Shown here: piece by piece, positions 11,086 to 29,924 of the stretch
Layout of the letters: each line of letters starts with the position of its first letter
Numbering within the stretch: the first letter of the stretch is position 1
Source: Chloroflexota bacterium
GTDB taxonomy: Bacteria > Chloroflexota > Dehalococcoidia > Lucifugimonadales > UBA3495
Direction: 5' to 3'
Assembly (NCBI GenBank): GCA_027623675.1
Contig: JAQBVF010000035.1
Coordinates: forward strand, 1-30,057
DNA: 30,057 bases
Program-made: the position numbers and the translations under genes
Notes under the pieces: generated by a model
The model's input: the letters and a program-made list of their open reading frames with translations, nothing else
Told to the model about the DNA's origin: nothing
Database searches by the model: none

Positions 11086-11115
11086 GAAAAAGCCTGGCGG
11101 TTGCCAGGCTTTTTC
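11086..11115 (-). terminator. intrinsic terminator after cysM
   Basis: GAAAAAGCCTGGC-ggtt-GCCAGGCTTTTTC perfect stem with T tracts on both strands. Confidence 0.85.
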
Positions 11116-11157: not shown

Positions 11158-12108
11158 TTACCACCAGATCTTGCCCTTGGCGTCTTTGGCCAGTTGCTCG
11201 TAGTCCTTGGTCCAGAGGGCTGTGCTCAGATACTTCCAGCCTCCGTCGGCCAGGAGGCACACGATGTCGCCTTCGTCCATGCGCTCCGCCTGTCGGATGG
11301 CCCCGTAGACGACGGAACCTGACGATACGCCGGCGAATATGCCCTCTTCCGCCAAAAGCCGCTTGGTGGTGGAGAAGGCGTCGAAGCTGCTGACCAGCAT
11401 CCGCGAGTCCAGCAGGTTGATGTCTAGTATGGGTGGGATGAACCCCTCTTCCAGACTGCGGAGTCCGGAGATGAAGTCATCAGGCTCCGGCGCGACGGCC
11501 ACCACCTTGACTTCGGGGTTGTGCTCTTTCAGACGGCGGCCCACGCCCATCAGGGTGCCGCCGGTGCCCAAGCCCGCAACAAACATCTTCACATCGGGCA
11601 GTGACTCTATGATCTCCGGGCCGGTGGTGTCGTAGTGGGCGTCGGGGTTGCCGCTGTTGCCGTACTGGTACAGCATGAAATAATCGCTGCCGCGCTTGTC
11701 TACCAGGTCCTGCGCGACTTCGATGGAGCCGTTGGTGCCCCGGGTGCCGTCGGATGGTATGATCTCCGCCCCGTAGGCCTCAAGCAGCTGCACCCGCTCC
11801 ACGCTCACGTTCTCCGGCATGACCACGGCGACCTTGTAGCCTTTTAGACGGCCGATCATCGCCAGAGATATGCCGGTGTTGCCGCTGGTGGGCTCCAAGA
11901 TGGTGCGGTTGGGGGATATCTCGCCGTCCCGTTCCGCCCGCTCAATCATCTTGAGGGCGATGCGGTCCTTGACGCTGCCGGTTGGGTTGTTCCCTTCCAA
12001 CTTGGCAAAGATGCGCACGCCCTCTTTGGGACTCATGCGCTGCAGTTGAACGACCGGTGTGTTGCCGATCGTGTCGATTATGCCTTTGTAGGTGAGCCTA
12101 GTAACCAT
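11158..12108 (-). CDS. cysM: PLP-dependent cysteine synthase, CysM-like (probably the sulfur-carrier-dependent type)
   Basis: KLEGNNPTGSVKDR (PLP Lys), EPTSGNTGI, GLGTGGT. The C-terminus ADGGWKYLST...GKIWW resembles actinobacterial CysM. Start at ATG 12108, with 12144 as an alternative. Confidence 0.85.
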   Translation of the reverse strand: MVTRLTYKGIIDTIGNTPVVQLQRMSPKEGVRIFAKLEGNNPTGSVKDRIALKMIERAERDGEISPNRTILEPTSGNTGISLAMIGRLKGYKVAVVMPENVSVERVQLLEAYGAEIIPSDGTRGTNGSIEVAQDLVDKRGSDYFMLYQYGNSGNPDAHYDTTGPEIIESLPDVKMFVAGLGTGGTLMGVGRRLKEHNPEVKVVAVAPEPDDFISGLRSLEEGFIPPILDINLLDSRMLVSSFDAFSTTKRLLAEEGIFAGVSSGSVVYGAIRQAERMDEGDIVCLLADGGWKYLSTALWTKDYEQLAKDAKGKIWW

Positions 12109-12173
12109 ATAGCCTGTATGTGTCTTAGGAATTACCTGGGCCAAGGTCCATCGTTAAACCCGATAGGTGCGTA

Positions 12174-12213: not shown

Positions 12214-13059
12214 TTAGTCCGACCCAACGGCCGCCGCTTCGTGGGGTTCGGCGATGCCGCAGAATACTTCGTAATCGATCAACTCCGTCACGGTGGGGTT
12301 GTCACCGCACAACGGGCAGTCGGGGTTCTTCTTGAGTCTCACTTCCCGGAAGGTCATGCTCAGCGCGTCGATGAGCAACAGCCGCGAGCTGAGGGACTCG
12401 CCGATGCCCAAGAAATATTTGAGGGCTTCGGTGGCCTGGATGCTGCCGACCAATCCAGTCAAGGCGCCCAGCACGCCGGCCTCGGCGCAGTTGGGGACCA
12501 TGCCAGGAGGCGGAGGCGAGGGGAACAGGCAGCGGTAGCAGCCCTCTCCGGGCAGGAACACGGTGGCCTGGCCGTCGAAGATCAGGATGCTGCCGTCAAC
12601 CAGGGGTTTCTTCAGCAGGTAGCAGGCGTCGTTCACCAGATACCGGGTGGCGAAGTTGTCGGCGCCGTTGATCACCAGGTCGTATTGGCCGATGATCTCC
12701 ATGGCGTTGTCGGACTCCAAACGGGTCTCGTGGACTACCACGTTCACGTCTGGGTTGTAGGCCTTGATGTTGTCGATGGCGGACTGGACCTTGGGCCGGC
12801 CCACGTCGGCGGTGTGGTGCAGGACCTGGCGCTGGAGGTTCGACAGCTCAACCACGTCGAAGTCAACGATTCCGACGGTGCCAACTCCGGCCAATGCCAG
12901 GTAGATGGCGGAAGGGGAACCGAGCCCCCCGGCGCCGATGATCAGGGCCTTGGCGCCCATGAGTGCGCGCTGACCCTTGCTCCCCACATCGCCCATGATG
13001 ATGTGGCGGCTGTATCGCTTTACTTGATCTGGTGTGAGCGTTAGGGGCTGATCGGCCAT
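12214..13059 (-). CDS. moeB: MoeB/ThiF-family sulfur-carrier adenylyltransferase
   Basis: RYSRH, GAGGLGSP, DFDVVELSNLQRQ, DNFATRYLVNDAC, CYRC and CPLC Zn sites, active-site NCAEAGVLG. No rhodanese domain. AGGAGG RBS. Confidence 0.92.
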   Translation of the reverse strand: MADQPLTLTPDQVKRYSRHIIMGDVGSKGQRALMGAKALIIGAGGLGSPSAIYLALAGVGTVGIVDFDVVELSNLQRQVLHHTADVGRPKVQSAIDNIKAYNPDVNVVVHETRLESDNAMEIIGQYDLVINGADNFATRYLVNDACYLLKKPLVDGSILIFDGQATVFLPGEGCYRCLFPSPPPPGMVPNCAEAGVLGALTGLVGSIQATEALKYFLGIGESLSSRLLLIDALSMTFREVRLKKNPDCPLCGDNPTVTELIDYEVFCGIAEPHEAAAVGSD

Positions 13060-13205: not shown

Positions 13206-13259
13206 AAAAAAACCCGCGCTTACCCATATTCGGTTGCTCAAAACGGGTGGGCGCAGGCT
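13206..13259 (-). terminator. attenuator terminator hairpin in the moeB leader
   Basis: Minus strand AGCCTGCGCCCACCCGT...ATGGGTAAGCGCGGGTT followed by TTTTT (U7 in total), about 150 nt before the moeB start. Confidence 0.75.
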
Positions 13260-13285
13260 TCAGATATACAGAAATGTAGCCCGCC

Positions 13286-13357
13286 CTATGTGGGCGGACA
13301 CGTACAGGAGCAAGTTAGTTGAGATTGGCTATTCGGCCAGTTTTTGAACGTAATCAT
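13286..13357 (-). CDS. putative Cys-rich attenuator leader peptide (23 aa)
   Basis: Hand-translated: MITFKNWPNSQSQLTCSCTCPPT*. ATG is 10 nt after the -10 box. Three Cys codons precede alternative hairpins. Confidence 0.65.
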   Translation of the reverse strand: MITFKNWPNSQSQLTCSCTCPPT

Positions 13358-13396
13358 TGACTAATCGAGTCTATAGCTGCCGATAAATGTTGTCAA
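13357..13396 (-). promoter_or_regulatory. promoter of the leader-moeB-cysM unit with an overlapping IscR/Rrf2-like operator
   Basis: Minus strand TTGACA (13391-13396), 17 nt, TAGACT (13368-13373). The dyad TTGACT-AATCG-AGTCTA (13357-13373) covers -10 and +1. Confidence 0.72.
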
Positions 13397-13402
13397 GCTA
13401 AC

Positions 13403-14863
13403 TGTGGTAGACCAGAGAAAATGACACCCCTTAACAGTTCAGTGAAAATGTCACCCTATGGAAAAGGAGACAGTGTCATTGAACGGGAAGGAACAGCAGA
13501 GGGCAAAGGTGTTGAACCAGATGGAGCGGGGAGGCCTAACGGGGGAGGAGGCTGCCGGGCTCATGGGTCTGTCGGTGCGGCAGGTCCGGAGGTTGCTGGC
13601 GGCCTACAGGCAGGAGGGAGTTGCTGCCCTATCCCACGGCAATCGCGGCCGCGCGCCGGTCCACCGGATTCCAGAACACCTCAGAGAGCAGGCGGTAGCT
13701 TTGGCCCGGGGCCTTTACCAAGGTCTGAACCACCACCACCTGCAGGAGGTCTTAGCGGAGCGGGAGGAGCTGACCCTGAGCCGGTCCTCCCTGTGGCGCA
13801 TCCTCACCGAGGCAAAGGTGCCCAGCCCGAAGCGGCGCCGCCGTGCCCAACACCGGCACCGGAGGGAGCGCTACCCCCAAGAGGGGATGCTGCTCCAGGT
13901 GGACGGCAGCCGTCACGACTGGCTGGAGGGGCGGGGTCCCTACCTTACGTTGGTCGGGGCCATCGATGACGCCACGGGCACGGTTCCCCACGCCTTGTTC
14001 CGGGAACAGGAGGACGCCCAAGGCTACTTGCTGCTGCTGCGGGAGATTATCGGAAGCAAAGGCATACCCTTGGCCCTCTACAGCGACCGGCACAGCATCT
14101 TCCAGGTCAACCCCAAGCAGGGGGAGACCCTGGAGGAGCAGTTGGCTGGAGAACGTCAACCCACCCAGGTGGGCCGGGCCATGAATGAGTTGGGCATTCA
14201 GTCCATCGTGGCCCTCTCCCCCCAAGCCAAGGGCCGGGTGGAAAGGCTGTGGGGCACCTTCCAAGACCGACTGGTCAGTGAGCTGCGCCTGGCTGGAGCT
14301 GCCACGCTGGAGGAGGCCAACCAGGTGCTTTGGGACTTCCTGCCCCGGTTCGACGCTCGCTTCGCCGTGCCGCCTTCCCAGCCAGGCACCGCCTACCGGC
14401 GGCTGGAGCCTGGGATTAGCCTGGAAGGGGTGCTCTGCTTCAAGTACCAGCGTACCGTGGCCAAGGACAATACGGTGAGATTGGGAGAGCACACCCTGCA
14501 GATCTTGGCCGGAACCGGCCGGTCAAGCTACGCCCGGGCTCGGGTGGAGGTCCAAGAACGGCAGGATGGCAGCGTGGCGGTGACGTATCAGGGCCGAGTG
14601 ATCGCCAGCAGAGAAGCTCCGCCCCTTCCCTCCGCGCTCAGGGCTCGAAAGGGGGCTTGGAGGGAAGAGGCAAGGGCTGATGTTGCCCCCAACTCCGCGT
14701 TGGTCCCCGGCAGGGACGGCACTCCGGAGAGCGGGGCTGTGGTATCGGGACAAGAGCATCAACCGCACCCTCGAAAACCCAGCCCCAACCACCCCTGGAG
14801 GAGATCCCTGGTGGTGACAAAATCACAGAACTATTAGGGTGACATATTGACTGAACTACCACA
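13403..14863 (+). mobile_element. intact insertion sequence, ISNCY/IS1202-type, 1461 bp, 6-bp target-site duplication GCTAAC
   Basis: Ends TGTGGTAG...CTACCACA. Each end has two copies of an AGTTCAGTGAAAATGTCACCCT-like repeat. GCTAAC occurs at 13397-13402 and 14864-14869. Confidence 0.92.
13458..14837 (+). CDS. DDE transposase (ISNCY/IS1202 type)
   Basis: N-terminal HTH, then LLQVDGSRHDWLEGRG, AIDDATG, LYSDRHSIF, SPQAKGRVERLWGTFQDRL. Confidence 0.93.
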   Translation: MEKETVSLNGKEQQRAKVLNQMERGGLTGEEAAGLMGLSVRQVRRLLAAYRQEGVAALSHGNRGRAPVHRIPEHLREQAVALARGLYQGLNHHHLQEVLAEREELTLSRSSLWRILTEAKVPSPKRRRRAQHRHRRERYPQEGMLLQVDGSRHDWLEGRGPYLTLVGAIDDATGTVPHALFREQEDAQGYLLLLREIIGSKGIPLALYSDRHSIFQVNPKQGETLEEQLAGERQPTQVGRAMNELGIQSIVALSPQAKGRVERLWGTFQDRLVSELRLAGAATLEEANQVLWDFLPRFDARFAVPPSQPGTAYRRLEPGISLEGVLCFKYQRTVAKDNTVRLGEHTLQILAGTGRSSYARARVEVQERQDGSVAVTYQGRVIASREAPPLPSALRARKGAWREEARADVAPNSALVPGRDGTPESGAVVSGQEHQPHPRKPSPNHPWRRSLVVTKSQNY

Positions 14864-14926
14864 GCTAACTCAGGCGTGAAATGGTCTTCGTGCGCGCCGG
14901 TCCTGGGCGCTGGCCTGGCCACGGAG

Positions 14927-15364
14927 CTATAGCGGCAGCGCCTCCTGTCCGGCCAGACTGGACTGGCGTTCGGCCAGGTCGGCCACGGTGATATTGCTGA
15001 GCACGTCGCGGATCGACGCTTCCACCGTCTTCCACACCTCTTGCTGGGCGCAGGTGTGGGAGAACACACAATCGTGGGGGTTGATGAGGCAATCCAACGG
15101 CGAATTGCTGCTGTCCAGACGCTCCATCACCATGTTGAGGTCGATATCTTTGGGGTCGATGGCCAGGGCGTGTCCCCCCTGAGGTCCCCTGCGGCTATTG
15201 ACGAAGCCGAACTTGTTCAGAGAAGTCATCAGCTGGTCCAGGTAGGCTTCGGGGATGCCCTGTTTGGAGGCAATCGTCGCCGTTTGGACGTGGCCGTCAC
15301 CGTAGCGAAGAGCCAGTTCCACCAGCGCTCGCACCCCATAGTCCACTTTCATGGGGATCTTCAT
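14927..15364 (-). CDS. Rrf2-family transcriptional regulator (IscR/CymR-like, three Cys)
   Basis: ATG after GGAGGT. DYGVRALVELA, YLDQL, SRRGPQGGHAL, and a C-X6-C-X5-C putative Fe-S ligand set. Confidence 0.92.
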   Translation of the reverse strand: MKIPMKVDYGVRALVELALRYGDGHVQTATIASKQGIPEAYLDQLMTSLNKFGFVNSRRGPQGGHALAIDPKDIDLNMVMERLDSSNSPLDCLINPHDCVFSHTCAQQEVWKTVEASIRDVLSNITVADLAERQSSLAGQEALPL

Positions 15365-15398
15365 CAGGACGTACCTCCAGGCTGGTAAGCCAATATGA

Positions 15399-15454
15399 AT
15401 TATACACCAGGCCATCCCGGATTCCAAGATTGTCTACCAAGGTAGTCAACAATC
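15399..15454 (-). promoter_or_regulatory. rrf2 promoter with adjacent dyad operator
   Basis: Minus strand TTGGAA, 17 nt, TATAAT (15399-15427). The imperfect dyad GATTGTCTACC-AAGGT-AGTCAACAATC (15428-15454) abuts the -35. Confidence 0.65.
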
Positions 15455-21468: not shown

Positions 21469-23253
21469 TTACCTTGGTTGAGCGTACTCAAATGCTACCG
21501 CGGTCCTCACTTCACTCCAGTCCGTGGGTTCCCATCCTTCGATGGAAAGCTTTTTCCCAATCGGCCAGATCGCGTCATGAGTGTAAATCGCAGACGCCAT
21601 AGCGTTGTCGAAGATCCAGTTGTAAACCTTCAGGTTCTTCTCCCACGCCAACTCGGGATCAACTTCTTCCGACGCGTCTCTCACGTTTTCATCCAACCAG
21701 GGATGGTGTGTGCCATAGCTGAACGTGGACCTGGTCTCGTAGTTGGATGCTCCAACGATAGGCGACAGGCGGACGCCAACGGTGTGGCAGGTTGCGCCTA
21801 TGTAGTTCCTGGCGATGACCTCAGGACGGAGCGTGGAGTATGGAATGTTCTGGAATTTTACATCCAGGCCAATGGCTTCCCAGTATTGGGCTACCGCCTC
21901 ACAGGCTTCGACCTCGGCAACCGCACCACGAATGGCCGGCGTCAAAGTGATGCTGAACCCATTGGGGAACCCGGCTTCAGCAATCATTTGCTTGGCCAGT
22001 TCAGGGTTGTACTCGTAGACCCAATCAGGGTTGGCTCGTGCTTCGTGGCCCATCCAGTCCCTGACTGATAGAGGTTTGCCAAAGCCGGACAGCAGCGTGT
22101 CAACGATGGTCTGCCGGTCGATGGCGATGTTCAAGGCCTTCTTGACCTTGACAGCGTTTGCCCATTCTTCGGACTCGGTGTCGGGGTTAGAAGAAACCCA
22201 AGCCAGGTCCGGATTGTACTGAGGGTATTCGTTGCCGTCCTTATCTAATCCGTAGAGCTGGCCATATAGATTGAGGCCGGCCTGACCGGCGTTGGGGAAG
22301 CCTTTGACCAGGGCCCCTTCCACCTGTTCCACAGTGGGTAGGGAGTCAAACGCCATGTCAAAGCTGTCTAGGGTCCCTGTTCGGAATCCGGCAACCCTGG
22401 CAGACTCTTCGGGTATCGTCCAGTAGATCAACCCGGCGAAGTAAGGCGTTTGACGCCAGTGGTCTTCCACGGCGGTCATTTTCCAGGAAACGCCGCTTTC
22501 AGAACTCTCGATCTCCCAAGGTCCGGTGGCGGCGATGTTTTTGCTGGCCGCTTCGATACCGACCTCTTCAGACTGTTTCTTACTGACGATCCAGGTGCTG
22601 GAGCCGCCGCTGTTGCGCATGAACTCGAATGCTTGTGCGGGTACCCACGGCACTCCGGTATTAACCACCAATGTGTAATCATCGATAATCTCAGAACCGC
22701 CGTCAGTGTGGTTGAAGAATTCACCGATGATACCGGCGCGGGCATGCTTGGCGCCGGCGTTCCACTGCTGGTAGGAGTAGAGGACGTCTTCGGCAGTCAT
22801 CTCTCCGTAACCCTTATGGAATTGGACTCCCTCTTGGAACTTCCAAGTCCAGGTCAAGAAGTCATCAGATATGCTCCAAGACTTGGCCAGCATGGGGTTA
22901 GCTGAGAAGTCAGGCGCAGTGGTAATCAGTCCTTCACCGACGCTGCTGTTGGTGAATTGAATCCGAGGGCTCGAGGTCATGCTCGGATGCCCCTCAAATA
23001 TCCCGGTCTCTTTCTGTCCCATATTAATGGTGCCGGCTGGTGAGGTCTTTACCGGCGTGGTTTTGGTGGCTTCCGGTTTCGACGTTGGAGTTTCACCGGA
23101 CGTTGCTGTCGCCGTGGACTCTGGGCTGCCGGTCGACGACACCGGAGTGGCGGTAGCGGAAGAACCGCAAGCCACTAGCAGGGCCGCGAACAACAGGACC
23201 AAAGCCTGAGGCCAAAAGCGGAAATAGTTTCTAGAAGTACCAGATTTGGGCAC
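21469..23253 (-). CDS. ABC transporter substrate-binding lipoprotein, family 5 (paralog 1)
   Basis: Signal peptide with lipobox LLVAC and a P/T/S linker. LAKSW...WKFQEGVQFHKGYGEMTAEDVLYS, ATGPW, ALNIAIDR, YNPELAKQMIAEAG. Confidence 0.93.
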   Translation of the reverse strand: MPKSGTSRNYFRFWPQALVLLFAALLVACGSSATATPVSSTGSPESTATATSGETPTSKPEATKTTPVKTSPAGTINMGQKETGIFEGHPSMTSSPRIQFTNSSVGEGLITTAPDFSANPMLAKSWSISDDFLTWTWKFQEGVQFHKGYGEMTAEDVLYSYQQWNAGAKHARAGIIGEFFNHTDGGSEIIDDYTLVVNTGVPWVPAQAFEFMRNSGGSSTWIVSKKQSEEVGIEAASKNIAATGPWEIESSESGVSWKMTAVEDHWRQTPYFAGLIYWTIPEESARVAGFRTGTLDSFDMAFDSLPTVEQVEGALVKGFPNAGQAGLNLYGQLYGLDKDGNEYPQYNPDLAWVSSNPDTESEEWANAVKVKKALNIAIDRQTIVDTLLSGFGKPLSVRDWMGHEARANPDWVYEYNPELAKQMIAEAGFPNGFSITLTPAIRGAVAEVEACEAVAQYWEAIGLDVKFQNIPYSTLRPEVIARNYIGATCHTVGVRLSPIVGASNYETRSTFSYGTHHPWLDENVRDASEEVDPELAWEKNLKVYNWIFDNAMASAIYTHDAIWPIGKKLSIEGWEPTDWSEVRTAVAFEYAQPR

Positions 23254-23366
23254 GTTATACGCTCCTAAACTACGAAATCCAAAAGTACCGTGTTTCTATC
23301 TCTTTAATGAGGTAGACATAGGAACCCCTAGAACCCCAGAGTGTTTCTGAGGGTTCAAACCTATGG

Positions 23367-23395
23367 TTTATAAGCCACAATATCCAAATTGTCAA
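23367..23395 (-). promoter_or_regulatory. promoter of SBP paralog 1
   Basis: Minus strand TTGACA, 17 nt, TATAAA. Confidence 0.8.
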
Positions 23396-23574
23396 TAACA
23401 TTAGATAATCACTATCATATTATTACTTACGATTTGGTGATTTATATCTCTGTTGTAATAAAGCAGAACGATGAGTTTGTCCGTTCAGTTAGATGTTTTG
23501 TTGGTACATATATGGATAAAGGGGAGAAAACGAGATTGCCATTTATGGCGCAAATTAAATCAATGGCGAAAAAC

Positions 23575-23608
23575 AAAAAAGAGCCCCAATCCGAGGATCG
23601 GGGCTCTT
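23575..23608 (-). terminator. terminator of SBP paralog 2
   Basis: AAGAGCCCC...GGGGCTCTT stem with an A6 run on + (U tract on minus). Confidence 0.8.
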
Positions 23609-23650
23609 CTGCAGGGCCAATCACGGCCCTAAATCTGCATTGCTTGTTGC

Positions 23651-25486
23651 TTACCGGTGCTTGGCGTACTCGAAGCCGACCGTGGTCCGAACTTCGCTGA
23701 AGTCGGTGGGGCCGAAATCGGGATCTAGCCGGGGTCCTATCGGCCAGATGCCATCATGAACGTACAGCGAGGATGCGAAAGAGTTATCGAAGATCCAGTC
23801 GTAGATCTCACGCTCGTCCGCCCGGATCTTTGCCGGATCGACTTCCACCGACGCTGCGGAGACGCGTTCTTCCATCCACGGGTGGTGAGACCCGTAGCTG
23901 AAGGTCGACTTCACGACGTAGTTGGAGGCGCCGATGATGGGCGAAAGGCGCACGCCAACGGTGTGGCAGGTGACGCCCACGAATTTCCGGGTGATTAACT
24001 CAGGCCGAATAGTTGCATAAGGGATATTCTGGAACTTTACGTTGATACCGATGTCGTCCCAGTACTGTGCGACCGCTTCACACGCTTCAACCTCAGCGGG
24101 AGCTCCGCGGATCGCCGGTACCAGGGAAATCTCGAAGCCATCGGGATAGCCCGCTTCGGCCAGCATCTGCTTGGCCAGTACCGGGTTGTAGTCGTAGACC
24201 CAATCGGGGTTGGCCCGTGTGTCATGACCCATCCAGTCCCTGACGGACTGGGGCCTTCCGAAACCGGACAGCAGTTCATCGACGATCGCCTGTCGGTCGA
24301 TGGCGATGTTCAGTGCCTTCCGGACCTTGACGGCGTTGGCCCATGCCTCAGATTCGGTGTCGGCATCCGAGGACACCCATGGCAGCTTGGGGTTGTAGGC
24401 CGGGTACTCTTTACCGTCTTTGTCTAGGCCATATAGCTGGCCGTAGAAGTTTAGCCCAGCTTGGCCGGCATTGGGCCAGCCGATCATGGCCGCGCCCTCC
24501 ACCGCTTCCACTACCGGCAGCGAGTCGAATGCCATGTCGAAGCTATCCAACTGGCCGGTCTGGAACCCGGCGACGCGGGCTGACTCTTCCGGGATGGACC
24601 AGTAGGTCAACTCGGCGAAGTAGGGGGTCTGGCGCCAATGGTCTTCCACAGCGCTCATCCGCCAAAATTCACCGCTGGAGTGCTCCTCAATCTGCCAGGG
24701 CCCGGTGGCGGCAATGTCTTTGCTGGCCGTATCGATGCCAATCTCTTCAGACTGCTTCTGGCTGACGACCCAAGAACTGGAACCGCCGCCGTTGCGCATG
24801 AATTCAAAGACCTGCGCGGGAACCCATGGCACTCCGGTGTTGACGACCATGGTGTAGTCGTCCACGATCTCAATGGAGGCGCCTTCCCGGCCGCCGAATT
24901 CGCCGTTGACCCCGCCGAAGTACTCGCCCATGATGCCGGAGCGGGCGTGCAGGGCGCCGGCGTTCCACTGCTGGTAGGAGTAGAGGACGTCCTCGGCGGT
25001 CATCTCCCCGTAGCCCTTGTGGAACTGGACACCTTCCTGGAACTTCCAGGTCCAGGTGAGGAAGTCGTCAGAAACGCTCCAAGATTTCGCCAGCATCGGG
25101 CCGGCTGAGAAGTCTGGCTGAGTGGTGATTAGTCCCTCAGCTACTGAGCTGCTGGTGAACTGGATCCTGGGGCTGGAACTCTTGCTCGGGTGCGCTTCAA
25201 AGATGCCCGTTTCCTTCTGACCCATGTTGATGGTCCCGGCCGGAGCAACCTTGGCCGGTGGGGCGTCCGTTGCTTGTGGCATGGCCGTGGGCTGGGCCGT
25301 ACCCCCGGCGGTTGACGGGGCCTTCGTAGCTGGGACCGCCGTCGGAGACGATGTGGCTCCGCCGCTGCTTCTCTGCGGGGTGGCGGTCGCTGACGACCCG
25401 CAAGCGAACAGCAAGGCTACGAACATTAGGACAATGGCCTTCGGTAGATGCTTGAGAACTGACGCTCTTAATCTTGGGTTGGGCAC
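23651..25486 (-). CDS. ABC transporter substrate-binding lipoprotein, family 5 (paralog 2)
   Basis: GTG start after GGAG, lipobox LLFAC, same conserved blocks as paralog 1. Confidence 0.93.
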   Translation of the reverse strand: MPNPRLRASVLKHLPKAIVLMFVALLFACGSSATATPQRSSGGATSSPTAVPATKAPSTAGGTAQPTAMPQATDAPPAKVAPAGTINMGQKETGIFEAHPSKSSSPRIQFTSSSVAEGLITTQPDFSAGPMLAKSWSVSDDFLTWTWKFQEGVQFHKGYGEMTAEDVLYSYQQWNAGALHARSGIMGEYFGGVNGEFGGREGASIEIVDDYTMVVNTGVPWVPAQVFEFMRNGGGSSSWVVSQKQSEEIGIDTASKDIAATGPWQIEEHSSGEFWRMSAVEDHWRQTPYFAELTYWSIPEESARVAGFQTGQLDSFDMAFDSLPVVEAVEGAAMIGWPNAGQAGLNFYGQLYGLDKDGKEYPAYNPKLPWVSSDADTESEAWANAVKVRKALNIAIDRQAIVDELLSGFGRPQSVRDWMGHDTRANPDWVYDYNPVLAKQMLAEAGYPDGFEISLVPAIRGAPAEVEACEAVAQYWDDIGINVKFQNIPYATIRPELITRKFVGVTCHTVGVRLSPIIGASNYVVKSTFSYGSHHPWMEERVSAASVEVDPAKIRADEREIYDWIFDNSFASSLYVHDGIWPIGPRLDPDFGPTDFSEVRTTVGFEYAKHR

Positions 25487-25584
25487 TTTTTCTTCTCCCT
25501 GATTACGATTAACGGTAAAGTAATTGCGCATTTCGGAAAAACGCGATTTTCATCACGATGTTCCCTTGCGTTTGCAACGTATGG

Positions 25585-25613
25585 TTTATAAGTCACTGTA
25601 TCCAGTATGTCAA
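25585..25613 (-). promoter_or_regulatory. promoter of SBP paralog 2
   Basis: Minus strand TTGACA, 17 nt, TATAAA. Confidence 0.8.
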
Positions 25614-25782
25614 TATATCGCGATAAAGATTATCAATAACCAATTTACGATTAGCTAATAACTATCGCTGATATTAATTAGTAATACGAATCATTTCAGC
25701 AAAATTAATACTAATTACTGTGATCTTTAACTTAATAGAACCAGTAAACGAGTTTTGTGAGTGAGTCAAGATGAACGGTAAC

Positions 25783-25824
25783 GCAACAAAGCGCCCTGCG
25801 CATCCGCGCAGGGCGCTTTGTTGC
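25783..25824 (-). terminator. terminator of SBP paralog 3
   Basis: 19-bp perfect stem GCAACAAAGCGCCCTGCGC-atcc-GCGCAGGGCGCTTTGTTGC. Confidence 0.8.
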
Positions 25825-25868
25825 CATGTGTCTGGGTTCCGGAGTCCTAGGCCAAATTGGCCGGGTAA

Positions 25869-27688
25869 TCAGCGAGGCATGGCGTACTCGAACGAGTTGG
25901 CAATCCGGGTCTCGCTATAGTCATATGGTTTCCAGTCGGGGTTGACCCTCGGCCCGATGGGCCAGACACCGTCGTGGGTGTAGAGGGCGAATGCCATAAC
26001 GTTGTCATATATCCAGCCGGCTATTTTCTTCTCCTTCTCTGCCAGCTTCACCGGGTCCACTTCCTTTAGCGCGTCGGAGATGTTCTCCTCCATCCACGGG
26101 TGCTCGGTCCCGTAGCTGAAGGTCGACTGCTTAACATAGTTGGAGGCCCCGATGATGGGAGTCAGCCGGCCGCTAACTGTGTGGCAGGTGGCACCCTGGT
26201 ACTTCCGGGTGATTATCTCGGGCCGGAGGGTGGCGTACGGTATATTCTGGAGCTTGACATCGACCCCGATGCCTTCCCAGTACTGGGCCACTGCCTCGCA
26301 GGCCTCGACCTCGGCGGGCGCCCCGCGGATGGCCGGGGTCAGCGTGATGCTAAAGCCATTGGGATAGCCAGCTTCGGCCAGCAATTCCTTCGCCCTCGCT
26401 GGGTCGTATTCATGCACCCAACGGGGGTCGGCCCTTCCTTCGAAACCCATCCAGTCCCGGAGGTACAGCGGAGCGCCGAATCCGGACAGGAGCGTATCGA
26501 CGATGGTCTGCCGGTCGATGGCGATCGCCAAGGCCTTCTTGACCTTGACGGCTTTGGCCCATTCCTCGGAAGTCGGGTCCTCGTCGCAGGAGACCCAGGC
26601 GTTGGTGCAGTCGAGGTACTGGTAGGGGTTCCCGTCCTTGTCGGTCCCGTAGGTCTGGCCATAGATGTTCAGGCCGGCCTGTCCGGCGTTCGGCCATCCA
26701 ACGATCTCAGCGCCCGAGATCTTCTCCACCGTGGGAATAGTGTCGAAAGCCATGTCGAAGTTGTCCAGTTGGCCGGTCTGGAACCCGGCCACCCGGGCCG
26801 ACTCTTCGGGGACGGTCCAGAAGACTAGTTGATCGAAATAGGGGGTCTGGCGCCAATGGTCTTGGACGGCCTTAAACCTCCAGAATTCGCCGCTGGCGGA
26901 ATCGACGATCTCCCAAGGCCCGGTCGCGGCGATGTTTTTGCTGGCGGCTTCGGCGCCGATCTCTTCGGACTGTTTCTTGCTCACGGTCCAGGTGCTGGAC
27001 CCGCCCAGGTTGCGCATAAACTCAAAGGCCACCGGCTGCACCCAGGGTTTGGCGGTGGTGATCTTTATGGTGTAGTCATCGACGATCTCCTGCGTCGTGC
27101 CATCTTTCCCTCCCCAATAGTTGCTGATGATTCCGGCGCGGGCATGCAACGCTCCTTCTCCAAACTGTTGGTAGGAATAGAGCACATCTTCGGCCGTCAT
27201 CTCCCCGTATCCCTTGTGGAGCTGGACTCCCTCTTGGAGGTTCCAAGTCCAGGTTAGGAAATCAGCGGAAACACTCCAAGACTTGGCCAGCGAAGGACCC
27301 GGGGACAGGTCTGGCTGAATGGCGACCAGGCCTTCACCCACGGTTTGGGAAGTGAACTGGATCCGTGGGCTGGAGACGAACCTGGGGTGCGCCTCGAAGA
27401 TGCCGGTCTCTTTCTGACCGACATTGAGTGTACCGGCGGCCTTAGCCTTGGCCGGTGGCGTGTTAGTGGCTTGCATGGCGGCCGTTGGCACCGCTGTGGC
27501 CTGGGCTGCTCCGCCGGTCGGGGCCGTTGTCGAAGGAACCGCCGTGGGCGAAGTGGTCGATCCGCCGCTGGGGACCGGGGGGTAGCCGTTGCCGATGAGC
27601 CGCATGCGAACAGCAAAACTACGAATAACAGAACGACCACCTTGGGCAATTGCCTAAATATCCGTGGGTTTGAACTAGTTTTTGGCAA
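25869..27688 (-). pseudogene. ABC substrate-binding lipoprotein, family 5 (paralog 3), frameshifted after the lipobox
   Basis: Signal peptide and LLFACGSSATATP are in the frame starting at TTG 27688, while the mature domain is in the 25869-27605 frame. The switch maps to a G6 run at 27577-27582. The total of 1820 nt is not a multiple of 3. Confidence 0.8.
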
Positions 27689-27795
27689 GGCTCCTTCTCC
27701 TTAGTCCGAGTTGATTACGTATTGCTATTAATTCTTACACATCTATAGATATATCAGCACTATATTTGCCAGAATCTAAGAGTTTAGCATGGATG

Positions 27796-27824
27796 TTTAT
27801 AGGTTATGCAGTATAGTTTGTCAA
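27796..27824 (-). promoter_or_regulatory. promoter of SBP paralog 3
   Basis: Minus strand TTGACA, 17 nt, TATAAA. Confidence 0.8.
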
Positions 27825-27991
27825 CACGGATATAATGATAACCAGCGATATATATAATCAAATAATGGTGGGGTAACAGATACGGAAAATACCAGGTAAT
27901 GCCGCCGAAATGCCGTCGACAGCCCGAGTGTTTGGTCGCTGCGTCGGTCGGCTGCCACCCGCGCGTTAGAGGGGTTGTTCCGAAGGCGGTC

Positions 27992-28033
27992 GGCTGATGG
28001 TGATTGGCTGATAGTGATTCGCTGATGGAGATG
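27992..28033. repeat. three imperfect 14-bp tandem repeats
   Basis: GGCTGATGGTGATT / GGCTGATAGTGATT / CGCTGATGGAGATG. Confidence 0.7.
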
Positions 28034-28037
28034 CAAT

Positions 28038-28075
28038 GAAAAGGCGCCTCGGCAACAATGCCGAGGCGCCTTTTC
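28038..28075 (-). terminator. terminator of SBP paralog 4
   Basis: GAAAAGGCGCCTCGGCA-acaa-TGCCGAGGCGCCTTTTC perfect stem. Confidence 0.85.
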
Positions 28076-28097
28076 GCAGCTATCGCTTCCGGTCGCC

Positions 28098-29924
28098 CTA
28101 TCGGGGTCTGGTGTACTCGAATCCAGTTGGCGTCCGGACGTCGGCAAAGTCGGCCGGCTCGAAATTGGGGTCGAGTCGCGGGCCGATGGGCCAGACGCCG
28201 TCGTGGACGTACATCGACGAGGCCATGGCGTTATCCCATATAAAGTTGTAGAACTCCAGTTCCCCCGACTCAATCTTCACTGGGTTTACCTGCACCGCGG
28301 CGCGGCCGAAGATCTCATCCAACATGGGATGGTGTGTCCCGTAACTGTAGGTCGAGGTTATCGGGTAGTTGGAAGCTCCGATCAAGGGGGTCAGGCGTAC
28401 GCCAACGGTGAGGCAGGTGATGCCCTGGTATTTCCGGGTGATCAGCTCGGGCCGGATGGTGGCGTACGGAACGTTCTGGATGTTGACTGAGATGCCGATC
28501 GCTTCCCAGTACTGGGCCAGCGCTTGGCAGGTCTCAACCTCGGCGGGCGCTCCCCGGATGGCCGGCGTCAACGTGATGCTGAACCCATCAGGATAACCGG
28601 CATCGGTCAACATCTGCTTGGCCAGGACCGGGTCGTACTCGTAGACCCAGGCCGGGTTGGCCCTCGCTTCGTGGCCCATCCAGTCCCTCATGGACTGGGG
28701 CCGCCCGAAGCCCGACAGAAGCGTATCGACGATGGTCTGGCGGTCGATGGCGATATTCATCGCCTTCCGGACCATTACGGCGTCCTTCCATTCCTTGGAA
28801 TCTATGTCTGCATCACAAGACACCCAAGCCTGTTCACATTTGTAGTACTGGTATTCGTTGCCGTCTCTATCCAAGCCATAGGTCTGGCCGTACCAGTTGA
28901 TCCCGGCCTGACCGGCATTGGGTACGCTTTTCATTATGGCGCCTTCGACTTTTTCAGACGTAGGAATGGAGTCGAAGTCCATGGCGAAGGTGTCCAGAAT
29001 ACCGGTCTGGAAACCAGCGACCCGGGCCGACTCCTCCGGAACGGTCCATAACACCAACTCGTCGAAGTAAGGAGTCTGGCGCCAGTGGTCTTGCACGGCT
29101 TTGAATTTCCAGAAAGATCCGCTCTCACTGTCCACAATCTCCCACGGCCCGGTGGAGGCGATGTTCACGCTGGCTTTTTCGATCCCAAGCTCTTCCGATT
29201 GCTTCTTGCTGACGGTCCAGTTGCTGACGCCGCCGCCGGTGCGCAAGAATTCGTAAACCCGCGCCGGTACCCATGGTTTGCCGGTAAAGACCTCAAAAGT
29301 TTGGTCATCGATTATCGTAGTGGTGGCGCCGATCTCCGGGTTCCCATCGAACCCGAAATACTCTCCGATGAACCCGGCGCGGGCGAGAAGGGCGCCTTCG
29401 TAGAACTGTTCGAGGGAGTAGACGACGTCCTCGGTGGTCACCGTGCCATAACCCTTGTGAAACCCCACCCCCGGCTGGATCTTCCAAGTCCAGGTTAAGA
29501 AGTCTTCGGAAATATCCCAGGATTCGGCCAACTGGGGGGTGCCCGCGAGGTCCGCTCCGACGCGTATCAGGCCTTCGCCTATCGATAGGGAGAGAAACTG
29601 AATCCTAGGGCTTGAGGCCTCCCTCGGATGGCCCTGGAAGATGCCGGTCTCCCGCGTGCCATAGTTGATGGCGCCGGCCGGTTCTGCCCTCGATGGCGGT
29701 GTCTGAGTGGCTTTAGGCATCGCCGTTGGTAAAGCCGCGCTTTCGGCAGATGATGACGGTACCGCGGTAGGCTGTGCCGTCGCGGTGGGCGAAGTCGGGC
29801 CGCTGCTCGCCACCGGGGTCGTGGTCGCCGATGAACCGCAAGCGAAAAGTAGGGCCACGAAGATTAGAACGACTGCTTGGGGTAGTTGCCTGAGTTTTCG
29901 GGGCTTGGTCCGTAACTTTAGCAT
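28098..29924 (-). CDS. ABC transporter substrate-binding lipoprotein, family 5 (paralog 4)
   Basis: AAGGAG RBS plus ATG, lipobox LLFAC, same conserved blocks as the other paralogs. Confidence 0.93.
   Translation of the reverse strand: MLKLRTKPRKLRQLPQAVVLIFVALLFACGSSATTTPVASSGPTSPTATAQPTAVPSSSAESAALPTAMPKATQTPPSRAEPAGAINYGTRETGIFQGHPREASSPRIQFLSLSIGEGLIRVGADLAGTPQLAESWDISEDFLTWTWKIQPGVGFHKGYGTVTTEDVVYSLEQFYEGALLARAGFIGEYFGFDGNPEIGATTTIIDDQTFEVFTGKPWVPARVYEFLRTGGGVSNWTVSKKQSEELGIEKASVNIASTGPWEIVDSESGSFWKFKAVQDHWRQTPYFDELVLWTVPEESARVAGFQTGILDTFAMDFDSIPTSEKVEGAIMKSVPNAGQAGINWYGQTYGLDRDGNEYQYYKCEQAWVSCDADIDSKEWKDAVMVRKAMNIAIDRQTIVDTLLSGFGRPQSMRDWMGHEARANPAWVYEYDPVLAKQMLTDAGYPDGFSITLTPAIRGAPAEVETCQALAQYWEAIGISVNIQNVPYATIRPELITRKYQGITCLTVGVRLTPLIGASNYPITSTYSYGTHHPMLDEIFGRAAVQVNPVKIESGELEFYNFIWDNAMASSMYVHDGVWPIGPRLDPNFEPADFADVRTPTGFEYTRPR

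Follow-up and report, generated by a model that had tools for sequence, protein, structure and literature searches.

A predicted cysteine-codon transcription attenuator before moeB-cysM and other sulfur genes of SAR202 Dehalococcoidia

The moeB-cysM locus and its leader

The window examined here (the whole stretch of DNA analysed, 30,057 nt) carries on its minus strand a gene encoding a MoeB/ThiF-family adenylyltransferase and a cysteine synthase gene, cysM, preceded by a promoter, a short ORF with Cys codons close to its stop and RNA segments that can pair in alternative ways (Table 1). A Pfam search of MoeB identified a ThiF domain only, with no rhodanese domain. An Arg of the cysteine synthase aligns with mycobacterial Arg220. 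The best PDB relative of the enzyme was mycobacterial CysM, an O-phosphoserine sulfhydrylase (3dwg, E 2.5e-91; next unrelated match 3e-74). The genome of the window encodes, over the cut-off, five ThiS/MoaD-like carriers, one Prok-JAB protein and Rho; no cysE was found over the cut-off, a weak negative given that the genome is 91% complete. Four gene kinds of the CysM/CysO/Mec/MoeZ cysteine pathway, as outlined in the available text of PMC3227635, are thus represented, the carriers and the JAB protein being encoded outside this operon. Judged by these sequence matches, the moeB-cysM products are likely to make cysteine by a sulfur-carrier (CysM/CysO/Mec-type) route, in keeping with the original prediction that the downstream genes serve cysteine synthesis.

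Table 1. Positions of the features discussed, numbered along the window
Feature	Position	Strand	Remarks
Hairpin with A/U flanks after cysM	11087..11114	minus	seen by eye; likely operon end
Cysteine synthase gene (cysM)	11158..12144	minus	translation may begin a few codons further in
moeB, MoeB/ThiF-family E1-like adenylyltransferase gene	12214..13059	minus	likely sulfur-carrier activator
Segment 4 and 7-U tract	13206..13220	minus	closes the predicted intrinsic terminator
Segment 3	13249..13260	minus	3' strand of predicted antiterminator 2:3; 5' arm of terminator 3:4
Segment 2	13278..13286	minus	from the G of the UAG stop; partners 1 or 3
Leader ORF, 23 codons, ending CSCTCPPT-stop	13286..13357	minus	from translation and conservation
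Segment 1	13292..13299	minus	in the last Cys and Pro-Pro codons; from folding and swap test
-10 box TAGACT	13368..13373	minus	17 nt from TTGACA
-35 box TTGACA	13391..13396	minus	leader promoter
ISNCY-family insertion sequence, ends TGTGGTAG	13403..14863	plus	transposase 13458-14837
Rrf2-family regulator gene	14927..15427	minus	likely start 15364; normally adjoins the leader

The leader promoter matches the consensus at 10 of 12 positions, and its -35 box is common to 34 of the 49 orthologous loci examined. The leader ATG lies 10 nt 3' of the -10 box without a Shine-Dalgarno (SD) sequence. The transcript is predicted to begin at about 13361, some 3-4 nt before the ATG, and so to be near-leaderless, a start that we place by assuming the usual sigma-70 spacing. 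Translation of the ORF (13357-13286) gives MITFKNWPNSQSQLTCSCTCPPT followed by the stop, with Cys codons at 13312 (Cys16), 13306 (Cys18) and 13300 (Cys20), the final one four codons ahead of the stop. The U tract ends about 146 nt before the moeB start, and no sigma-70-like site was found between the terminator and moeB. Every coordinate of the original prediction for the promoter, the 23-codon Cys leader, the alternative stems and the U tract proved correct.

The frequency of such arrangements by chance was assessed in the same genome by a model-free scan. It contained 890 promoter-like sites, 74 of them with a short ORF and nine with a terminator as well. Three of the nine were Cys leaders, situated before moeB-cysM, sir-hemD and a cysH-like gene; the other six were put down to chance (three without Cys, one coding-like and two sharing a repeated contig-end sequence). 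Among RNA runs, five shared 0.05-0.06 of the words of the stretch, all as assembled contigs. Contigs of relatives, mostly less than 90% alike, covered 13206-13361 in three of four runs, and some connected the leader with moeB; as transcript ends, strand and level are unreadable from contigs, they are left out of the evidence.

The insertion sequence lies between rrf2 and the promoter, flanked by 6-bp target repeats (13397-13402 and 14864-14869), and its end is 7 nt upstream of the undamaged -35 box. Since rrf2 directly adjoins the same promoter in relatives, it appears to be a recent insertion that spared the promoter. The insertion sequence as source of the promoter was ruled out because relatives free of it share both boxes. 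A conserved CACGC-containing stretch just upstream of the genus promoter, possibly an operator or UP element, is split by the insertion, and a degenerate end of an insertion sequence was noted at C31:25618-25809. Elsewhere in the window (21469-29924, minus strand), four tandem paralogous ORFs of approximately 580-630 amino acids look by eye like ABC peptide/nickel-binding lipoproteins.

Conservation, translation and spread of the leader family

When moeB loci were chosen by gene, through cysM, promoter, ATG and Cys leader were present at 34 of 49. Within the family of the window the element occurred at 32 of the 33 loci with sufficient upstream DNA; two more were truncated at a contig end, and in one of these the leader end and the terminator were still present. 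Leaders before moeB comprise 14-29 amino acids with unrelated N-termini, and in 30 of 34 the final Cys precedes the stop by four codons. A second set of 80 moeB loci, in which some genomes were repeated, had the element in seven of nine new genomes of the same family and also in families f5, f61 and part of f14; it was absent from most others. Many moeB loci outside the family of the window have no leader, and some retain the terminator alone.

A pattern scan of GTDB returned at least 119 loci; among those listed, 66 were before moeB and 48 before sir, four were cut short but had promoter and leader, and one was from Verrucomicrobiota. The last was rejected as a chance match, being without promoter, start or terminator. 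Of 80 titled pattern matches, 78 were labelled Dehalococcoidia, SAR202 or Chloroflexota. A covariance model matched 23 of 151 genomes of the order, several of them twice, and found a second copy in the genome of the window (C45, E 0.016); second copies lie ahead of a gene for either a sulfite/nitrite reductase or a TauE protein. Promoter and Cys leader preceded sir in all 34 genomes of the window's family having sir (chosen by gene) and in 11 of 17 genomes from other families, the other six comprising one with a single Cys and no terminator, one whose element precedes an earlier gene, one truncated and three lacking it. At class level, seven of 48 sir loci (45 of them from other orders) had the element, all in family f81 of another order. 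Four kinds of cysteine or sulfur genes therefore follow copies of the element: moeB, sir, PAPS reductase and TauE genes.

Several individual loci deserve mention. The second copy in the genome of the window (G000:C45:39528-41540; L153:3529-6389, plus strand) lies before sir-hemD, and genus sir leaders, with three to five Cys, mostly continue beyond the ancestral TAG and end at a stop further on, within segment 2. The third copy (G000:C15:22187; L433, minus strand), with a leader of the MRFGDDLFHPC subtype, precedes the cysH-like gene, whose protein resembles proteins scored as PAPS reductase and is identified by that likeness only. As this gene was rare (two of 41 genomes and none of 19 genus relatives), it may be recently acquired or a contaminant, the genome being 5.7% contaminated. 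Cys leaders also occur before TauE/SafE-family genes, or before other genes that open a sulfur operon, at L097 (G108:C105), L094, L398, L431 and L202. A second moeB-cysM pair, 54-69% identical, with a MoaD/ThiS-type-looking gene ahead and no leader, is present at L048 (G013:C61). Terminator-like hairpins with a U tract and without promoter or uORF lie between rrf2 and moeB at L037, L040, L044, L047, L116, L117, L121, L129 and L131, the loop sequence being conserved between L040 and L047. In place of the leader, the rrf2-moeB gap of L052 (G291) holds more than 10 tandem copies of a 16-nt unit. L134 (G076) has another kind of ORF, nine codons long and with two Cys, which ends about 30 nt before moeB and has no terminator; it may have arisen by chance or may be a separate Cys sensor acting on translation.

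Signs of translation were examined in 115 distinct leaders with a promoter, the search pattern having fixed two Cys codons. In 113 of these an ATG located 3-16 nt beyond the -10 box was in the Cys frame, and in one it was in another frame; TTG seems to serve as the start in the two leaders without an ATG in the Cys frame. The Cys frame was open in 115 of 115, the other frames in 84 and 39. Among codons that the pattern had not fixed, Cys accounted for 122 of 1153 in frame (10.6%) vs 23 and 12 of 1040 out of frame (2.2% and 1.2%), and Cys at position -8 occurred in 75 of 113 leaders. Both a conserved start with an open frame and an enrichment in end-product codons, by which an attenuator is recognised, were thus found, and leader length and N-terminus varied as frame and Cys codons stayed. 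An SD-like 4-mer preceded the ATG in 3 of 114 leaders, a rarity that makes near-leaderless initiation likely. The mean number of Cys per leader was 3.7 before sir and 2.7 before moeB, as expected for codon counting. The 16 genus leaders have identical Cys codons with no synonymous change, and a TGT/TGC exchange at -6 occurs in other genera. Since the last Cys codon (TGT) sits in stem 1, its conservation may be partly structural.

A subtype of the leaders reads MRxxDDLFHLC followed by 3-5 residues. The motif pattern was found in 38 of 401 genomes of the order, spread over six families or more (with 20 of the 24 genomes of f14), and in 20 metagenome records; the reversed motif, run as a control, had no matches among the results listed. 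Of 51 distinct motif matches, 30 lie before sir, five before moeB and 16 elsewhere, a group that includes matches ahead of PAPS reductase or TauE genes, matches at truncated loci and one that looks like chance. Every one of the six Arg codons and of the six Leu codons is used among the 51, and 34 of the 51 have a single Cys. Two variants outside the motif pattern were met independently, at C15 in the genome of the window and in G043. Twelve leaders met via gene, model or architecture searches, whose extraction required D, D, L, F and C, had D-D-L-F-x-x-C at a fixed distance from Met and, over codons 5-11, 198 synonymous vs 22 non-synonymous pairwise differences. An assembly frameshift was ruled out as the origin of the single-Cys leader of L035, the same frame recurring in many genomes. 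In the moeB family of the window, amino-acid conservation is confined to the Cys block, and the window leader is without the motif.

RNA structures and the proposed attenuation mechanism

Folding of the naked leader RNA gave 1:2 together with 3:4 (-57.4 kcal/mol, z = -4.24; none of 200 shuffles as good), segment 1 being paired with segment 2 in what is predicted to be a pause/protector hairpin. The whole predicted terminator hairpin extends over approximately 13260-13206, contains an inner stem, ends in seven U at 13212-13206 and has by itself a folding energy of -26.1 kcal/mol. By computation, then, an intrinsic terminator lies between the leader and the first gene; in the pattern-scan loci it is conserved, 66-103 nt after the leader stop. 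A simple terminator scan did not pick up the 3:4 hairpin, probably because the scan allows a loop of 3-8 nt and the hairpin has an inner stem, and Rfam gave no match at the gathering score anywhere in the window. Named-pair counts for the terminator gave 95% of cells paired and three pairs altered on both sides. RNAalifold on a MAFFT alignment recovered four pairs and no more, a weak yield explained by mis-registration of segment 2 between subgroups.

Pairing was also assessed by a swap test, in which each segment was folded with its own partner and with the partners of other elements, for 61 non-redundant elements out of 185; its p values ignore kinship, and segments were misplaced in about five rows. 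For 1:2, own partners gave -13.1 kcal/mol vs -10.9 for swapped ones and were better in 48 of 61 elements. The signal for 2:3 was modest, at -12.3 vs -11.3 kcal/mol, with own partners better in 36 of 61 and a permutation p of 1e-4 (moeB p 0.002; sir alone p 0.06, not significant). By this measure, which disregards kinship, an antiterminator overlapping the 5' arm of the terminator is conserved by compensation. The values for 3:4 (-17.8 vs -11.1 kcal/mol) are circular, because folding itself defined segments 3 and 4. The negative controls gave p 0.28 for 1:3 and p 0.06 for 2:4. L034 and L035 have kept all three helices with different letters. Alignment of moeB leaders, proposed originally as a check, thus retained the Cys codons, with 1:2, 2:3 and 3:4 partner-specific in the swap test, and the trp/his-type geometry claimed for the locus is upheld by these pairings together with the conserved frame.

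The distance from the U tract to the SD of the first gene bears on read-through. It was within 35 nt in 70 of 91 sir elements and in 13 of 86 moeB elements; as the gap in those 70 has no room for a second promoter, sir would be reached by read-through.

A ribosome with a 12-nt footprint was then placed along the transcript as it stands before segment 4 emerges. The modelled P(2:3) was 0.08 at Cys16, 0.64 at Cys18, 0.78 at Cys20, 0.85 at Pro21, 0.56 at Pro22 and 0.00 at both Thr23 and the stop; without a ribosome the model gave wholly 1:2 and 3:4. Cys18 and Cys20 favoured 2:3 at all three footprints, Cys16 at 15 nt only and little at 9 or 12 nt. Folding under a ribosome constraint, another check suggested at the outset, therefore supports in the model the inference that stalling at Cys codons permits the antiterminator and that arrival at the stop does not, but a ribosome at the first Cys codon (13312) does little to promote 2:3. 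The same three states were obtained in the orthologues examined, among those listed, and for the C15 copy. When the complete transcript was taken to equilibrium with the ribosome placed at Cys20, P(3:4) was 0.99. Since 3:4 wins at equilibrium, the switch must be kinetic. Attenuation of trp is likewise held to be kinetic.

Taken together, we consider it highly probable, on sequence grounds, that a trp/his-type transcription attenuator sensing Cys-tRNA controls moeB-cysM, as one member of a family serving sulfur and cysteine genes in SAR202 Dehalococcoidia. RNA polymerase would begin some 3-4 nt upstream of the AUG, ribosome loading would take place without an SD sequence, and the 1:2 hairpin would likely hold the polymerase until the ribosome catches up. 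With Cys-tRNA scarce, the ribosome would halt at Cys18 or Cys20 and mask segment 1, leaving segment 2 free; 2:3 would then form ahead of the synthesis of segment 4, and transcription would read through into moeB-cysM. With enough cysteine, the ribosome would reach the UAG and mask segment 2, so that 3:4 and the U tract would end the transcript near 13206. Where there is no translation, 1:2 and 3:4 would form and transcription would stop.

Among other explanations, the one that survives best keeps the attenuator and lets the nascent peptide set the stall, in response to free cysteine, another sulfur metabolite or the state of the ribosome, and not only the supply of Cys-tRNA. We regard this as unlikely for the family as a whole; an arrest-type reading has its best case in the MRxxDDLFHLC subtype and in the Pro-Pro-x-stop ending. 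Codon counting does not need the conservation of MRxxDDLFHLC, so the nascent chain may share in stalling, and the sequence pattern is such that the subtype may be an arrest-type sensor. In its favour are the fixed D-D-L-F-x-x-C with its excess of synonymous differences, the recurrence of the motif in the order with no reversed match listed, the use of all Arg and Leu codons alongside a mostly single Cys, and the two copies outside the motif pattern that surfaced independently; in the model, moreover, 2:3 is favoured with the ribosome on Pro21-Pro22. Against it, the N-terminus and length of leaders in the window's family vary freely, Pro-Pro is replaced in many members, and the difference in Cys counts between sir and moeB leaders fits codon counting. 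Two regulatory codons are enough for trp attenuation in E. coli.

Far less probable is that the ORF yields a functional Cys-rich mini-protein, for example a metal-binding one, or forms part of a stand-alone small RNA, with a constitutive terminator and with Rrf2 controlling moeB-cysM. The Rrf2 gene does adjoin in most relatives, the terminator stands alone between rrf2 and moeB in some families, and CxCxC and CCxC motifs look like metal-binding peptides, but the peptide is mostly unconserved, its Cys codons keep a fixed distance from the stems and 1:2 and 2:3 pairing is partner-specific. In addition, 70 of 91 sir elements have no space for a promoter after the U tract, and the stretch from terminator to moeB is free of sigma-70-like sites. 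A ligand-binding riboswitch or T-box-like element with an incidental ORF is scarcely credible: the alternative structures are strong and T-boxes are used elsewhere in the genome (three T-box-like matches, one over the cut-off, at G000:C47:82423, C47:116913 and C6:20113), but Rfam found nothing in the window, the in-frame ATG (113 of 115) and open frame (115 of 115) are conserved, and the loops are free in length and sequence with no conserved aptamer-like core.

Returning to the attenuator that senses Cys-tRNA, approximately 190 natural variants with the full 1:2/2:3/3:4 layout before biosynthetic genes make the mechanism testable by reporters. Confirmation would show attenuation operating from near-leaderless transcripts and would offer a first regulatory handle on the sulfur metabolism of SAR202, a marine lineage that is abundant and for the most part uncultured. 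The leader would also flag genes that the cell treats as cysteine supply and so support the sulfur-carrier route in Chloroflexota. More tentatively, and with rather more doubt than belief, a wider picture may be drawn in which a SAR202 regulon of moeB-cysM, sir, cysH and tauE runs on one mobile family of near-leaderless terminator-attenuators, the MRxxDDLFHLC branch of which is a nascent-chain sensor of cysteine or sulfur in the ribosome tunnel. The subtype is a candidate for a new ribosome-tunnel sensor and, if that is true, it would be a sulfur-status arrest peptide wired to an intrinsic terminator, of which no example was found in the literature searched.

Relation to known attenuation systems

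The last regulatory codon of E. coli trpL is also four codons from the stop. With the E. coli trp and Salmonella his attenuators, as described in the available text of bioRxiv 10.1101/834739, the element shares a short ORF, regulatory codons towards the end of that ORF, the 1:2, 2:3 and 3:4 pairings, a U tract and a position before biosynthetic genes. It differs from them in its Cys codons, near-leaderless start without an SD sequence, association with several sulfur operons and one conserved-motif subtype, and no sequence homology or Rfam match ties it to them.

Cysteine has been the missing case in attenuation by amino acids. According to the same 2020 study, in the text available, uORF attenuation for cysteine had not been described until its own translational version. 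The polycysteine leaderless sORFs of mycobacteria act on translation by hiding the SD (bioRxiv 10.1101/834739; echoed in PMC13236596, both in the text available), and a response to cysteine was demonstrated for Ms5788A (bioRxiv 10.1101/834739). Actinobacterial cys leaders have, as far as the accessible part of PMC1262725 goes, no conserved terminator hairpins. The SAR202 element resembles the mycobacterial sORFs as a leaderless Cys-rich sORF before cysteine-pathway genes, but has a conserved terminator and Cys codons that mostly alternate (CxCxC). The mycobacterial arrangement, with a hidden SD and no terminator, does not describe the locus in the window, where a terminator is present and moeB lies well beyond it.

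Closer in kind is uORFC-8-2 of Rhodobacterales cysS, a predicted Cys uORF with two stems and a U run for which read-through on low Cys-tRNA was proposed (PMC8632094, in the text available). Compared by that description only, it belongs to Alphaproteobacteria and to cysS alone, has tandem Cys codons 14-15 and comes with no antiterminator in the description. The SAR202 element, in contrast, is found in Chloroflexota before moeB and sir, and the two cysS-like genes over the cut-off in the genome of the window (C8:37329 and C2:134226) have no Cys leader by eye. For Deinococcus deserti cysS, a leaderless peptide of 10 amino acids with two Cys was proposed as an attenuator (PMC4007540); it precedes cysS in another phylum, and the part of the description available gives no structure model.

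In its fixed length, amino-acid conservation and putative control of termination, the leader of the MRxxDDLFHLC subtype is like TnaC and SpeFL, arrest being putative here. TnaC and SpeFL are arrest peptides that act through Rho-dependent termination and respond to other ligands.

The original prediction knew of no terminator-based Cys attenuator described for this lineage, and a literature search agreed: none was found for Chloroflexota or for biosynthetic operons, subscription papers and supplements lying outside the search. A search by terms in the accessible text of PMC4833913, PMC2965389 and PMC8079986 likewise returned nothing on the element. The idea of a terminator-type Cys leader is nonetheless not wholly new, the version in print being, in the text available, the Rhodobacterales prediction for one tRNA-synthetase gene (PMC8632094). 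What appears new, from the sequences compared, is that the leader occurs in SAR202 and before a biosynthetic regulon, together with an explicit antiterminator, and that one subtype has a motif, MRxxDDLFHLC, seemingly selected as a protein and often with a single Cys.
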